Assembly: GCA_037379345.1 (NCBI GenBank)
Contig: CM074511.1
Location: 53,078,862-53,142,861, forward strand
Origin: Perna viridis
Lineage: Eukaryota
Direction: 5' to 3'
Length of the DNA stretch: 64,000 nucleotides
Part shown: one piece after another, positions 2,011 through 13,999 of the stretch
How positions within the stretch are numbered: position 1 is the stretch's first letter
How the letters are laid out: the number at the start of each line of letters is the position of its first letter
Made by a program: the position numbers and the translations under genes
Notes under the pieces: generated by a model
What the model was told of the DNA's origin: nothing
Database searches by the model: none
The model's input: only the letters and a program-made list of their open reading frames with translations

Positions 2011-5000
2011 CTTGAATCTGAAACACATCCCATATAGAATCAAAAAAGTTTATCAAATCACAAGTCTTTTTTTCAACATCACTACTGTTTGTACTGGTTT
2101 CTTGTGGCACAAATGTAAATACAACAGCTTCAGACTTCTTTTTTTCCTTCTGTCTTTTCTTTTTTAGTTTTCTCTTTTGGTTTTTAGTAAGTATTGTAAC
2201 AGGTTTATCATCATATTGAAGTTCTATGTCATTTACAGTGCCATCAGATTTTCTCTTTTTTCTCCGTCTTTTCTTTGCAGGCTCTTCTTCACCTGAAACC
2301 GAAGCAGTTGTAATGATTTATGTTAGTTGAAACAACAAAATCTATAAATAGCTTAACTAAATAAGAATTCACAATTTCAAACACAATTTAAGCATATTAT
2401 CATTCATCAAGCATTTTTGCTCTGGAATACACCTCCTTAACATAGACTAGTATGAATAGGTATGTTAAAATTGTGTCTTTGTGTAAGGCTTCTTTCTTTC
2501 TGATAAATGGCATAGGACAAAAAGTGAACATCAATTTTGTGACCCAAACAATGGTACATAAGACCAATGGAAAACAATGATATAGACAATAACAGTGCAC
2601 CAAGCTGTTATAAAATTGATATATGATATAACAAGAATAGGAATAGAGTATGACAAAGAGACAACAAACCCACTGGGATAAAAATGTCAGCCCAAGGCCA
2701 CCCAATGCTCTTAAATAAATGACAAGGCAATCCTCATACCACAGGGCAGGATGGAGAACCAGGATTGGTACAGTATCAGTACATCTTTACAGGAGAAACA
2801 GCATTGGTCCAGTATCAGTACATTTTTTTAATGGAGAACCAGGTTATGGTTGAGTATCAGTACATTTTTTATGAAACAAGGATATGTCCAGTATCAATAC
2901 ATTTTTATGGAGAACTAGATTGGTCTAATGACAAAAAACAACTTCTGGAAACAAGTCTTCACAGCACTTGCCGAATACTAACAAAGTCAAGATTCATTTA
3001 CTTCAAATAATATTCTAAGATGCTCCATATGGAGGAACTCGAAAATTAAAATCGATTAAAAGACCGTCTTTTTCAATAGTATGAAGCAGGAATATTTTAT
3101 ATTAGTGACCTGTTTAATGAAAATGGGAATTTTTTTCAGTACCAAGCATTTTGCAATATGTATGGTATCTACCCTGCCATTACAGTTTACTATGGTTTAA
3201 GAGATTCAATACTTGGAAAATGGGAAATATTAAGAACACTTTCAAAATCAGACATCCCAAAATATCCGTTAATTCCAATTGAAATGGAACAATTTATTGT
3301 ACATCTAAAAGGTGCAAACATGTTTTATCAAAGATTTATAAAAAATTTAAAGTTTCCTAAAAAATAAAGAGAAGTGGGTTGCAAAACTAAATATTCCAGG
3401 AGAAATAAACCAGAAATTGGTGCATAAATGTACTTTAAACACAACAAAGGACACCAAATTAAGGTGGTTCCAATTCAGACTTGTCCACAGAATTTTAGCA
3501 ACAAATAAACTTTTACACAAAACTGGAAAAAGACCAGACCCCATGTGCTCCTACTGTAAGGTCAAGAAGGAAACTACTGTTCATTTATTTTATGAATGTG
3601 ATGTTGTTTCTGATTTTGTACACAGCTTTGAGAGGTGGATATATAACAAAACTTCTGTTTTGCTCAACTTTTCCAACATTGAATGTTTATTTGGAAAAAT
3701 TGGTAATAGTAATAACACTTATATAGAAAACCTTTTAATGCTTACTTTTAAATTTTATATATATAAACAAAGATGTCGAGATGAACATCTTTTTCTACCT
3801 TATCTCAAGGCTGAAATCTATAATTGTTATAAGCAAGAGTGTTACTCATATTTGGCAAAAGGTAATATTACTTCTTTTAACAAAAGATGGCACAAATTCA
3901 AAGACCTAGTCCTGGAATAAAACTTTCTCTTTCCCTCAGTTCTTAAACACTTTTGACGCTCACACTGATTGTCTTTTTTTCTCTCTGAAATGCTCATGCT
4001 TGGACAATCTATATACATATTGTGCTATTAACATTTGCAACTTTTTCCAGAATGAAAGGATGTGTGAGAAACTGTCTTTGTATTAGTATTAATATTTGTA
4101 GAAACTTTCAAAAACAATGAAATTATAAAAAAAAAAATAAAAAAAATATTTTTATGGAGAACCAGGATTGGTCCAGTATCAGTACATTTTTAATGGAGAT
4201 CCAGGATTGGTCCAGCATCAGAACATTCTTTTTTATGGATAACCTTGATGGTCCAGAATCAGTGCATTTTTTATGGAAAACCAGGACTGGTCCAATATCA
4301 GTACATATTTTTTTATGGAGAACCAGGATAGGTCAAGTATAAGTACATTTTTGGTTTTAAACTAGAATTGTTCCAGTATCAATACATTTTCTTATGGAGA
4401 ACCAGGATTGATCCCGTATCAATACATTTTTCATGGAAAACCAGAATTGGTCCAGTATCAGTACATTTTAATGGAGAAGAAGGAATGGTCCAGTATTAGT
4501 GCATTATTTTAAGGAAAACAAGGATTGGTCCAGTATCAGTACATTTTTATTGGAGAACCAGGGTTGGTCCAGTATCAGTGCATTTTTATGGAAAATCAGG
4601 ATAGGTCCAGTATCATTGTATTTTTTAATGGAGAACCACGATTGGTCCAGTGTCAGTACATTATTTATGGAGAAACAGCACTGGTCCAGTATCAGTACAT
4701 TTTTTATGTAAAAAAAAGAATTGGTCCAGTATCAGTACCTTATTAATGGAATAACAAGGGTTGGCCCTATATCAGCGCATTTTTATTGGAGAACCAGGGT
4801 TGGTCCAGTATCAGTGCATTTTTATGGAAAATCAGGATAGGTCCAGTATCAATGCATTTTTTAATGGAGAACCAGGATTGATCCAATATCAGTACATTTT
4901 TATAGAGAACCAGGATTAATCCAGTATCAGTACATTTTTTAATGGAGAATTAGGATTGGCCAAGTATCAGTACATTTTTTATGAAACCAGGATTGTTCAG

Positions 5001-8000
5001 TACATTTTTAATGGAGAAACAGGATGTCCAGTATCAATACAATACTTTTTTGGAGAACCAGGGTTGGTCATATAGCAGCACATCTTTCTATGGAATAAAA
5101 GAACAGTGTTCCAATGTCTCCCTGTGAGAAAAAAAGTGCAGAAAACTTCAAATTCACTGAAGTCCAAAGGCCATACCTTCCATAAAAATCAATCAACCGT
5201 AACCAAAGTCGAACTTAATCTGTAACTTCTCATAGTAAGACTACAAACAAAATGTATAATCAATTGGTGAAAGCATTACAAAAAAAAGTGCTGAAAACTG
5301 TAAATTCACTGAAATTTTCTGTCCAAGGGCCATAACTTCTGTAAAAATCATTCAACTGTAACCAAAGTCAAACTTAATCTGTAACTCTTCATAATAAGGC
5401 CACATATCAAAAACAAACTTATTTGGTAAAAGCATAACAGAAAAAAGTGTGGAAAACGCGGACAGACAGACACCGGTATTTTCATGTCCCTTCGCCATGC
5501 ATTGCGGGGGACAAAAAATAGGACTGGTCCAGCATCAGTACATTTTTTAATGTAGAACCAGGATAGGTCTAGTATCAATATATTTATGAAGGCTTTTAAA
5601 GCACTTTCATAATAAATTGTTCTTTAATTCAGGAAGAGAAATTTCTCAACAAAAAGGGTCAGGATTCAGCTAGATTATTAACCTTACTAACCTCCATGTA
5701 CAATGTATAAAATTGTCTATTTGAACATTTGTTTAGATAGCAATCTAGAAGTCCAGAAGCTATTTGTAAAATATATGTTGAATTTACCATTTTTCCACTG
5801 AATTTGACCCCACATCTTAATTTTATTAGAACTGCATGCAAAATGTTTTATGTACAAACATTAAGGAGGTAGGTACTATAAGTACATTCAAATATGCAAG
5901 TTAATCAGCACTCTTCACGTTGACGTACTCCCAAACAGTTAGAGTGGGGAAACACTCTCGGACCCACGCTGAGTTTGGGAGTAGGCCAGAGCGCCAACAG
6001 AGCAGCCCAGCTGCTAGAAGGACATACTCAGACTGAGTTCTTCGGTCGAGTATCCTTAAGATTGGGCTTCGCTACCTCCAACTACTAACAGACATCTACT
6101 AACACAATCCTGCCTAGGGGTGGCTGTGCGAGATCCGCAAGGATAATCATGACTGTATAAACCACCAATCAGGAAAGTGAATCAGTTAAACCCAAACTTC
6201 TTATCATGATTATAACATATCTTAATTAAGTTTAACGACAGAAAAAGCTAGTCTCTAATCAAAGTGCTGTTAGAGGTTTTTGATCCTAGTGAAAACTGTA
6301 GCATGAAAAAACTTTCAAAGTTTACATGATGTAAAATAAAACTATAATCATACATTTGTGTTTCCCACTTCATTTAAAACTGTTTATTTTTTTTTCCGAA
6401 CTGTAGATACTAAATGTCAATTTTTACTACTGATCACTGAAGTATATACTGTAACCAATAGTTAAACAGTATCCAACTTCACACACATATACAAATTTTG
6501 TTCCTTTTCACCTTTTTCTAATTTTTTAAACCAGTCCAAAAGTTAATTTGCACAAACCATCAAAACTATTTTAAATGAGTATTTATCCTACACAGTAATT
6601 AAAATCAATTTCAGCTTTTAACAACATAAGATCTGGCAAAACTAAAATTTTCCCACCAATTTTACTTGGTTAAAATCACTCCTCTTCACTTCTGGTTTAT
6701 TCATCATAAAATATTAATGACTGGTTTTCAACAAATAAGTGTGTTCAATGGGACATTCTTCACACATTTAATGTTTCTTGACACATCACTGCAAGAACTA
6801 AATTCCCTAAATGCTATTTTACTACTCAACATCTTTCAACGCCAAAAAGGAGTCCCTCAAATCTTCAATTGATTTGAAGACTAGATCTCAATTTCATTTT
6901 GTAGAAATAATAGAACATTATTGAGCTGAACAATTGCCAGGAACATATTTACTGGTTTTAAAACAGACATTGAATGATAATAAAATGAATTACATTTGTC
7001 TATACTTTTGTGTTGATTCAGAAATGGTAAAGAAATGCCAGGCATAAACCAGTGACAGAACTTACTTTGTTAAAAAAAAAAAAACAAAAATAGTGAAATT
7101 CTTTAGATAGTCAGCAAATCTCAAACATGTTCTACTTAATCCTATTTTTATCTAGAAATACACATTCAATATGCATTATCTATTTTCACAATTACAATTC
7201 AGACTTCAGGAACCACTCTTATGTTAGAAAATATTTTTAATTACCAATACATGTAAATTTTTGGCAAAAATAAGACAATAATAGCCTGGACCCCCATTCC
7301 AAAATCTTTGGATCCATGTCTGCTATGCTAATTACCTTCTGATTCTGATGCTTCACTTTCACATTTTAGTTCAGCACAATCTGGAAGAACATAATCAGCT
7401 GGTGGAGGAAGTACACTGTATGTTTTCACTTCAGGTTTCAGAGCTGTTATCTTTTCCTCTACTTCTTCACTCTCTGATGAGTGTTCTGATGGCTCTTCTC
7501 TCCCATACATAATATTCCATACATTCTGCTTAAAAACTTCAATAAGAAACACACATTGTAATCATAATAAGAAATGACATATTTAATTCCAATAAAAAAT
7601 GTTATTCCTTATTCAAGACCTTAGTGAAAGATCCAGATATCTAATTCAGTGAGTACATGTAAACAAGGGAGTACTGTAAAACAAGTCAATAACTGCTTTG
7701 TCGCCTGAATATAGCTGAAATATTGCTGCTCAGGCGTTAAACCCCAACAAACAAACAAGTCCATAACTGAATTGTCGCCTGAATATAGCTGAAATATTGC
7801 TGCTCAGGCGTTAAACCCCAACAAACAAACAAGTCAAAAACTGAATTGTCGCCTGAATATAGCTGAAATATTGCTGCTCAGGCGTTAAACCCCAACAAAC
7901 AATCAAGTCAATAACTGAATTGTCGCCTGAATATAGTTGAAATATTGCTGCTCAGGCGTTAAACCCCAACAAACAAGTCAATAACTGAACTGCAACATTA

Positions 8001-12329: not shown

Positions 12330-13400
12330 TTAAATGTAACTTCTCCACAACTTCAGCAAGTCTACAAGCTCACCAGAAGTTGGTCTGTCTAAAGAGGATG
12401 CTGACCAACATTGCGAATAGAGATCTTTGTAGCATTCTTCAAATGGATCAAGTTCAATCTCGGGGTGTTTTGGCCTGTGCCCAAATGAAACTACTCCAAA
12501 GATAACCACATGTTGGTTTTCGTTCCCATACGGAGCCGTTCTGGCTAACATCTGCCACATTGTCACACCTAAAGAGTAAATGTCTGCTCTCATAGAGGGA
12601 GCTTCTCCTTTTAAAAGTTCTGGAGCTCTGTAAGCGAATGTGCCAGTCAACAAAGATCTTTGAGTAGGACTCACAATTCCAGTGTCAATTTCTACTTTTT
12701 GCGAACATCCAAAGTCTGCAAGCTTGCATGTTTTACCATCTGAAGATATCAAAATGTTAGCAGGTTTTAAGTCTAAATGACAAATTTTGTTCCCATGAGC
12801 ATATTTCAAAGCACTGGATATTTGTAAAGAAAATCTTAACCTCTTCATAGGTCCAAATGACACGGTTTCATCATCAATGAGGGCCTGTAGAGTCTTATCA
12901 CCAGCATACTCCATAACTATCCAAGCACCTTTATCAAAAGAATCCAAAGATGTAGCAGTAATAGTTTTTACAATGTGCCGATGTTCAAACCCAATAGTAT
13001 TCAGTTCTGCCTTGAAACTCTCCAATTGAGCAGCAGGATTTTTCGATACCCTGTGCAGAACTTTCACAGCTACTTTATTGTTCTTATATTTTCCAACATA
13101 TACAGCACCAAACCCTCCAGAACCAAGATACGGCCCTAATTCCACGTCGTCTTTATTTAATGACGAAACTTGTCTTCTCCTTGAATGTGCCTTGCAAATG
13201 GGTCGTTTGAACTCATCCCTTTTCTCTGATTTGACCATTACAGGCATAACAATCCTCTTGGCAACTTTAGCAATTCTTTGGCGTAACGCAATGTACTTTT
13301 TCACTAAACACTGGCTTTGTTTTTGTCCATTAGAGCCACTGAAAGATCCTCTCCTCTTTCTTACATCACATTTTCTATTATATACACTTTTAATCTGCAT
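12330..13400 (-). CDS. MOS: Serine/threonine kinase Mos (oocyte MAPKKK), intronless
   Basis: 356-aa ORF with LGSGGFGAVY, VAVK, ESFKAELN, HLDLKPANIL (HLD typical of Mos), KLADFGCSQ, GTFAYRAPELLKGE, ADIYSLG; single exon as expected for Mos. Confidence 0.93.
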   Translation of the reverse strand: MQIKSVYNRKCDVRKRRGSFSGSNGQKQSQCLVKKYIALRQRIAKVAKRIVMPVMVKSEKRDEFKRPICKAHSRRRQVSSLNKDDVELGPYLGSGGFGAVYVGKYKNNKVAVKVLHRVSKNPAAQLESFKAELNTIGFEHRHIVKTITATSLDSFDKGAWIVMEYAGDKTLQALIDDETVSFGPMKRLRFSLQISSALKYAHGNKICHLDLKPANILISSDGKTCKLADFGCSQKVEIDTGIVSPTQRSLLTGTFAYRAPELLKGEAPSMRADIYSLGVTMWQMLARTAPYGNENQHVVIFGVVSFGHRPKHPEIELDPFEECYKDLYSQCWSASSLDRPTSGELVDLLKLWRSYI

Positions 13401-13999
13401 TTTGCATATTTCTCATCAAACTCAATCTAACGAACTAACTTGTTCAAAGCGACAATAAAAACAGTTCACGTTTGGGTTAAAGGTCATGATTTGAAAGTAA
13501 GAAGTAGAACTTCAATTGAGTAGTTTTAATTGTATTTTTTTTTCAATGATTACTGAATAATTATTGTTGTTATTAGTACCTCCAGACAATTTGGCGGTTT
13601 GGTAATTAATTAACATGGTTTGGACTATTTTAAATTTGTAAACTATGATTATGGAAAGTCAATAACGTGCTATAAGCGCCGTGAGCTATTAGATGATAGA
13701 ACAAGACATGGATTAATTATTCGAGTTAATCTGCACCTTTATTATAAAAAAATAATAACATCTCAACACACTCTGGAAATTATTTAAAATCTTTTTTTTT
13801 TTGCATTTGATAGGTTTGCATGGTTTATTATTTAGGTTATTAATCAATGGTGGGTCCTGGGGTGCAGCGGGTTGGCATCCCACTTTTTTATTGGAAAATT
13901 TGTCATTTTCATGTGTAAAATTGACAAAAAATGATAAATAATGTATTTGCACCCATTTTCGGACCACTTCACTAAGACAAAAAATACAATTTGTACACC

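Follow-up and report, generated by a model that had tools for sequence, protein, structure and literature searches.

An element in an intron of the window (the whole 64,000-nucleotide stretch of Perna viridis DNA that was analysed) is, with near certainty, a copy of a LINE-mobilised non-autonomous retroposon, and the dispersed family to which it belongs probably combines a predicted HDV-like ribozyme as its head with a LINE-related tail. According to the proposed mechanism, a source copy would be transcribed by RNA polymerase II, which either reads through from a host gene or starts at an Inr/DPE-like promoter in the head. The ribozyme would cut just 5′ of base +1 and would leave an RNA of unit length whose 5′ end is compact. 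A LINE protein would then bind the tail stem-loop, nick the DNA and reverse-transcribe the RNA at a new site.

Boundaries and strand of the window copy

The first-pass annotation, made from the sequence alone, had described a multi-branched structured RNA candidate at 5865..6144 within a GC-rich island. Every sequence motif that it listed was found where it had been placed, and the island is real, with a GC content of 0.42–0.51 versus 0.27–0.37 in the flanks (200-nt windows). The proposed comparison with shuffled sequences was in its favour on both strands (z = −3.7 on the + strand and −3.1 on the − strand, equalled by 0/200 shuffles on either). The bounds were wrong, as the repeat extends from 5909 to about 6174 (Table 1). 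The 8-bp outer helix and the small hairpin at 5873-5885 had to be given up: the 5′ arm of the helix (5865-5872) and the hairpin are flanking DNA and are absent from 29 other copies, and the closure of the outer helix is therefore a chance pairing. The long arm is present with its perfect 11-bp helix and its hexaloop hairpin, but it is strengthened by substitutions that most copies lack. The second arm turned out to be a genuine hairpin of the family; in 95 copies 85–99% of the cells were paired at each of its 24 pairs, with one-sided variation only (G-C/G-U). The 3-way junction survives as a decayed form of the tail stem-loop of the family. It is true that the element has no ORF, TIR or poly(A), yet it is flanked by a target-site duplication (TSD). 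G·U pairs had been thought to leave the strand undecided; it was now settled as the + strand by the tail, the TSD position and the fit of an HDV descriptor, which was obtained on one strand only. The exons of the host gene (about 7337-7540 and 2010-2296) lie on the − strand, and thus the window copy is antisense to the host gene, for which ERICH1 is a weak lead (score 0.77).

Table 1. Features of the retroposon copy in the window.
Feature	Position	Strand	Remarks
Retroposon copy, subfamily A, non-coding, about 265 bases	5909..6174	+	84–88% identity to other copies; sharp 5′ edge common to family copies
Left TSD, 11 bp	5898..5908	+	10/11 letters equal 6175-6185
Right TSD	6175..6185	+	pairs with 5898-5908
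Flanking intron DNA outside the element	5865..5897	.	unrelated in 29 other copies
Predicted HDV-like ribozyme head, decayed in this copy	5909..5998	+	HDV geometry in part from papers
Head, P1	5909-5915/5940-5946	+	one mismatch
Head, P2	5919-5925/5992-5998	+	one mismatch
Head, P3	5927-5929/5937-5939	+	
Head, L3	5930-5936	+	
Head, P1.1	5931-5932/5947-5948	+	
Head, P4	5954-5965/5971-5982	+	one mismatch
Head, candidate catalytic C in J4/2	5987	+	placed by geometry alone
Possible Pol II core promoter lying within the head	5909..5941	+	motif positions same in A–C and D
Inr-like motif; DPE-like motif	5909-5914; 5937-5941	+	putative function
Body hairpin (second arm of the first-pass annotation)	6004..6068	+	kept in all subfamilies
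A/C-rich linker with two TACTAAC motifs (6083, 6097)	6069..6117	+	varies by tail type
LINE-related 3′ tail, decayed in this copy	6118..6174	+	fold same as in LINE, A and C tails
Tail contents: stem with inner GNRA hairpin, A/C run, start of short-repeat end	6133-6144 (GNRA hairpin)	+	

A dispersed family with four subfamilies

A copy-number search, also suggested by the first-pass annotation, revealed many dispersed matches in the genome. From 40 scored of 1169 first-look candidates at least 45 matches were obtained, including the window copy itself; the 44 non-self matches were 72–88% identical, and nearly all of them started at window position 5909. The flanks of 30 fetched loci were unrelated, save for a few inside shared larger repeats. 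An exact 20-mer of the head occurred at 186 sites, while exact or near-exact tail sites numbered 242 for the A/B type and 161 for the C/D type, and all reversed controls gave 0. On these sequence counts the family is estimated to comprise roughly 400 copies, which is a lower estimate, in four subfamilies. The family was also present, with an identical 5′ edge, in a run labelled as a second organism.

A TSD of at least 8 bp, mostly 10–13 bp, was found in 72 of the 108 complete copies (swapped flanks: 0–4), and it adjoined base +1 in 48 of these 72. About 16/19 and about 26/30 of the tail-selected copies reached the 5′ end (up to 3 edits). The variable TSDs, the LINE-related tail, a 3′ end made of a short CAT-type repeat and the lack of an ORF are traits of non-autonomous retroposons mobilised by LINEs. 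A classical Pol III SINE with a tRNA, 5S or 7SL head was considered and rejected, as neither ARAGORN (0 genes in 8/8 loci) nor Rfam revealed a small-RNA-gene head. Subfamilies A (the window type) and B have one common tail, subfamily C shares its first 168 nt with A/B and has a different tail, and subfamily D combines a diverged head with mostly the C-type tail. As one head is thus joined to two different tails, at least one tail must have been swapped.

Spreading in the manner of a retrozyme, via tandem repeats and circular RNA, is highly improbable. Two to three tandem copies do occur at some loci, but the units belong to different subfamilies and are spaced by repeats of the target sequence, and the majority of copies stand alone and have a TSD as well as a tail of LINE type. 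Rfam searches gave no hammerhead match, and the class of non-LTR retrozymes, with its type I hammerhead, was rejected on the same evidence.

Two groups of D-type copies were multiplied by other means. A copy with a broken P1 and an A-rich insertion was passively amplified inside another repeat, with flanks shared on both sides (L240, L251, L252, L257, L266, L275, L280, L281, L284, L285, L308 and L311). At G000:C13 21.9-35.5 Mb (L270-L272) there are about ten D copies that are nearly alike and whose flanks are identical; this cluster is a segmental or larger-repeat amplification.

A predicted HDV-like ribozyme in the head

The nested double pseudoknot of HDV-like ribozymes is very probably the design of the family head (first 90 nt). 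The informative test was a descriptor anchored at the TSD-defined start (+1) and scored against 3000 dinucleotide shuffles. The intact copy L112 fitted it with zero mismatches (0/3000 shuffles), with helices of 7 (P1), 7 (P2), 3 (P3), 2 (P1.1) and 12 bp (P4), and L091 fitted it with one mismatch in P1 (0/3000). The window copy fitted only at the loosest setting, with one mismatch each in P1 and P2 (1/3000), and the antisense strand gave no anchored fit. P1 starts exactly at base +1, the expected cleavage site. A loose, unanchored descriptor run over the whole window also found 5909, yet this match carries no weight, because shuffled windows gave 9–22 starts each.

The first-pass annotation had matched the structure to none of the known RNA classes that it considered, and Rfam agreed: the whole window gave nothing at gathering thresholds, and with values up to E 10 allowed it gave only two lncRNA fragments, both chance matches. 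The HDV-like models of Rfam gave no match up to E 5–10, intact copies included. Hammerhead, RNase MRP/P, 7SK, telomerase RNA and snoRNA, all judged by eye, were unsupported by Rfam and were discarded.

Base changes were followed in an alignment of 83 of the 112 heads; 29 were omitted, mostly for large indels, plus a duplicate and the chimeric-looking L201. At the third pair of P2, 64 rows had U-A and 14 had A-U, and 5 were unpaired; the change to A-U was one event that was inherited by subfamily D. In L201 the 5′ strand of P2 is of the D type, but the change in the 3′ strand that would match it is missing. Two wobbles in P4 were replaced in subfamily D by C-G and A-U, in 10 and 14 rows. A clear double change in P1 was confined to L013, and the 77% pairing of P1 across the alignment is a figure distorted by a misplaced gap in the D rows. 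P4 had one-sided changes as well, and P3 and P1.1 had no informative variation among the 83 heads. An alternative rod fold, which has P2 in common with the pseudoknot, paired 92.5% across copies versus 89.7% for the pseudoknot. The covariation that might speak for the pseudoknot is thin and comprises few events.

Folding energies of the first 92 nt favoured P2+P4 in intact copies. For L112 the rod and P1+P3+P4 were nearly equal (−27.1 vs −27.2 kcal/mol), while for the window copy the values were −25.3 and −14.9 kcal/mol. The substitutions of the window copy thus favour the rod over the pseudoknot, and for this reason it is likely to be inactive. As it is antisense, the ribozyme strand would moreover be absent from the pre-mRNA of the host gene. 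The window locus itself is of little importance and likely a dead copy. Self-cleavage of the source copies is rather likely.

HDV-like ribozymes have a P1 of 7 bp, and in J4/2 their catalytic C is followed by N-R-A. The commonest form of J4/2 was identical in subfamilies A–C and in D, with a C followed by N-R-A. The base preceding the candidate catalytic C is a C, and in HDV a G is found there. The seventh P1 pair is mostly U·U in A/B and D. The most specific HDV-like sign in the sequences is the composition of L3. In subfamily D it has 8 nt, with U, C, C at positions 1–3 and G at position 6, and the exact U and G at positions 1 and 6 were found in 16 of 28 D copies. In A–C, including the window copy, it has 7 nt, with C, C, C at positions 1–3 and A at position 6. 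U23/G28 is the signature pair of HDV-like ribozymes, and in HDV C23/A28 is reported to be the only active double mutant, 232-fold slower (PMC3386971). The switch between D and A–C is not a plain double substitution, because a one-base indel is involved: J1/2 is shorter by 1 nt and L3 longer by 1 nt in D, and the P1 span is kept.

A 4-nt deletion in alignment columns 30–34, bordered by short direct repeats, was observed in 10 of the 83 heads, which belong to A/B, C as well as D. It removes the 3′ strand of P3 together with the DPE-like motif, and repeated polymerase slippage is its likely cause.

A possible internal promoter and transcripts of the family

The head starts with an Inr-like hexamer in 88/123 copies and has a DPE-like pentamer at 29–33 in 82/123; in D, where two indels compensate each other, the pentamer has kept this position. 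The match was noticed post hoc. DPEs at +28 to +32 have been described in insect LINE promoters and in Pr77 of L1Tc (PMC4748587).

It would follow from a different reading that the head serves solely as a Pol II promoter inside the element (Inr + DPE), with hairpins for protection, and that the HDV fold is a non-cutting relic in the spreading subfamilies. This is fairly unlikely, although the motif frequencies fit it and the pair of indels in D keeps the spacing between Inr and DPE. The U·U in P1 of A/B and D and the lack of U·G in A–C also fit it, and RNA reads cross the 5′ edge uncut. However, changes in P2, P4 and L3 that preserve the geometry of a ribozyme would be needless for a promoter, the same indel pair also preserves the span of P1, and the match rests on motifs that were noticed afterwards. 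Furthermore, promoter and ribozyme functions coexist in L1Tc Pr77, according to PMC8190864.

The ribozyme-headed retroposon remains the preferred reading, and its RNA was sought in two RNA-seq runs (X21 and X22) at 80% likeness; exon reads indicated that a first mate on the + strand stands for RNA of the − strand. Over the element, antisense depth was about 60 in X21 and 77–88 in X22, and sense depth was 33 in X21 and 45–67 in X22. Most of these reads must derive from other copies, because most were less than 90% alike. RNA starts did not pile up at +1 in either run, and 82 reads of X22 ran past 5909 into unrelated flanks. In these runs the family occurs mainly as a passenger in host transcripts. 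The RNA-seq data neither support nor refute cleavage, because such libraries may lose short uncapped RNA. A search of public sequencing runs listed no RNA run as containing the element.

It is extremely improbable that the window copy was adopted as a functional intronic ncRNA or a regulatory structure of the host gene, as the first-pass annotation had suggested with an intron-hosted ncRNA. Its folding is better than that of shuffles, and DNA contigs of the public run X2 cross both of its junctions. However, the folding is inherited from the family (z of −4.2 for an intact copy vs −2.5 for the window copy), the copy has drifted like the others, its 5′ flank has zero RNA depth, and the reads over it are mostly too divergent to be its own. 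The discrete RNA that was to be looked for was not found in the two RNA-seq runs, which had no spot rich in starts or ends. The element is a multi-copy dispersed repeat with TSDs, antisense to the host gene and without an RNA of its own in these runs, and this speaks equally against the UTR of an RNA virus. Two further proposals, a ribozyme and an unrecognised retroelement, are both supported, and they combine in one short retroposon that is non-autonomous and has a head predicted to be HDV-like.

The tail and its LINE relatives

The tails of a LINE family and of subfamilies A and C have an identical fold, with pairs in both stems altered by compensatory changes, and in 4/4 comparisons the alignment score of element versus LINE tail was higher than that of all 2000 shuffles. 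The type copy of this two-ORF LINE, L153:1443-8300 (+), is about 6.9 kb long and full-length but decayed. It has APE, RT and RNase H domains, a 1.4-kb 3′ UTR and a 12-bp TSD, and a protein search revealed about 50 relatives. The domain layout suggests an I/Nimb-like family. L153-type tails were found at 598 genomic sites, and they adjoin 7/123 element copies, where about 0.02 would be expected from the 598 sites (the thresholds are not identical). Repeats of one target sequence lie between the LINE tail and the element at L241 and L007, and this suggests that LINE and element use the same insertion machinery. LINE and element tails are about 75% identical and have different end repeats, and therefore the true partner may be a relative of the L153 LINE.

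The copies that directly adjoin very short L153-type 3′ ends are L004, L007, L014, L241, L249, L275 and L278. At some of these seven loci the LINE end and the element are split by target repeats, as if the site had been hit repeatedly.

The search for a partner LINE covered the best 150 candidates per family search and a part of the head and tail sites. No LINE ORF belonging to the element was found beyond 40 head sites, 49 tail sites and the D-type sites examined, and no head match was found in the fetched LINE loci. Two candidates for a partner were rejected: L031, with head and tail 5.6 kb apart, is a single element split by insertions, and two tail-only sites are short truncated ends with an upstream motif that occurs at 3 sites only. 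Searches by endonuclease family led to three LINE families that all lack the head: one that is abundant and has two ORFs, one that is Ingi-like, and that of L153. A relaxed core pattern matched 33 sites (control 14), and its 13 new sites were D-type copies or chance matches. The Ingi-like LINE family (L158:2585-6845 (−) and L160) contains APE as well as stretches that resemble RT and RNase H, terminates in (GAA)n and has a TSD, and its 5′ end contains a long-range stem resembling P2.

The family could also be an ordinary bipartite product of internal deletion, derived from one autonomous LINE with both head and tail, as is the case for NARTc, RIME and R2 SIDE. This is possible, though on the unlikely side. 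Such elements usually retain the 5′ end and the ribozyme of their LINE (PMC5786205), and the partner search described above covered only some of the genomic sites. Against this origin stand the lack of an element-owned LINE ORF and of the head at the sites searched, and also the one head that carries two tails, at least one of them swapped. In the available part of PMC5786205 bipartite elements are reported for RTE, Ingi, Vingi and R2 only, whereas the related tail found here belongs to a two-ORF LINE. If the family were a deletion product, the ribozyme reading would be unchanged and the novelty of a chimera would be lost.

With a chimeric retroposon as the preferred reading, a further-reaching model can be put forward tentatively. 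A portable module of promoter and ribozyme might take the place of the tRNA at the head of a SINE-like animal family and might ride on I/Nimb-type LINEs that lack this head. Tails would be swapped, and the commonest subfamilies would carry a natural C·A in place of the 'invariant' U·G of HDV and would nevertheless self-cleave.

Relation to known systems

By analogy, the family would work like NARTc, RIME and SIDER of trypanosomatids and like R2 SIDEs. NARTc, RIME and SIDER, with Pr77 (L1TcRz), are also short non-coding retroposons with TSDs (PMC3185411, PMC4035085, PMC4748587). The ribozymes of the Pr77 class resemble the predicted head in their HDV-like fold at the extreme 5′ end, a C at +1, an internal DPE-like motif, a 3-bp P3 and a P1.1 of 1–2 bp. 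In contrast, the present family has an animal host, a head of 90 nt, a P4 of 12 bp and a ribozyme activity that is predicted. No autonomous LINE with the same head was found at the sites searched. The tail of the family has its relative in a LINE with two ORFs and RNase H, and it was exchanged between subfamilies. The R2 SIDE of Drosophila (PMC3414825) is likewise non-autonomous and has a ribozyme at its 5′ end and the 3′ end of a LINE, but the family described here is dispersed rather than rDNA-specific and has an APE-type partner. The genomic and antigenomic HDV ribozymes (PMC3386971) share the order of helices, the CC/GG P1.1 and the J4/2 cytosine with the family; in subfamily D only, their U and G also recur at positions 1 and 6 of L3. 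Unlike HDV, the family has a C-G first pair, and A–C carry the C/A combination, which in the available text of PMC3386971 is a laboratory mutant only.

Gastropod and bivalve LP-SINEs (Matetovici et al. 2016, PMC4758252) are similar in length (about 255 nt), in their non-tRNA head, TSDs and short-repeat end, in the proposed Pol II transcription and in that no partner LINE is named in the available text. Their head (Fig. S2, Nimb-17 homology) is unrelated by eye to the head described here, and no ribozyme is presented in that part of the paper. Membership was rejected, as eye comparison with Fig. S2 and a motif search revealed no homology to the first ~70 bp of Nimb-17_LMi. The motifs of the family had 0 matches in the available supplements of PMC4758252 and PMC5786205. 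Ribozyme folding is absent from the available text of PMC4758252, and the LP-SINE head, a putative promoter, is a parallel worth a look. The tRNA-derived HCD SINEs of bivalves, which have Nimb-related tails (PMC11481361), also show tail homology to I-superfamily LINEs (35–61 bp, 72–95% identity) and tail shuffling, and they differ in their tRNA head; the word ribozyme is absent from the main text as available.

Some SINEs use HDV-like ribozymes (PMC6765202), and thus the general idea of a ribozyme-bearing SINE is already known. The literature searched, outside subscription journals, contained no description of the family, which may already stand in Repbase or Dfam, and no HDV-like ribozyme in a molluscan SINE or Nimb element. 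If the reading is true, ribozyme-headed non-autonomous retroposons, known from trypanosomes and R2, would also include an animal family that is dispersed and has a tail of the I type; this combination is not among the ribozyme-bearing or bipartite-forming clades in the available part of PMC5786205. The subfamilies would form a series provided by nature (D with U·G, A–C with C·A, P1 either perfect or with a mismatch), in which one could ask how much cleavage is required by a retroposon. They also suggest that descriptor searches with a fixed U·G overlook genuine HDV-like RNAs. Intronic copies in sense orientation could cut host pre-mRNAs.

Further features of the window

Four additional features were observed in the window. 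A LINE ORF2 3′ fragment at 2990-4146 (+) ends near an A-rich run and includes an open stretch of 189 codons (3351-3917); it is followed by a minisatellite of about 39 bp at 4150-5100. A tandem repeat of about 62 bp at 7690-7985 ends in CAAA units and looks like a multiplied SINE tail. An intronless ORF of 360 codons with protein-kinase motifs, which by eye we take to resemble Mos, lies at 12333-13412 (−), on the same strand as the host exons.
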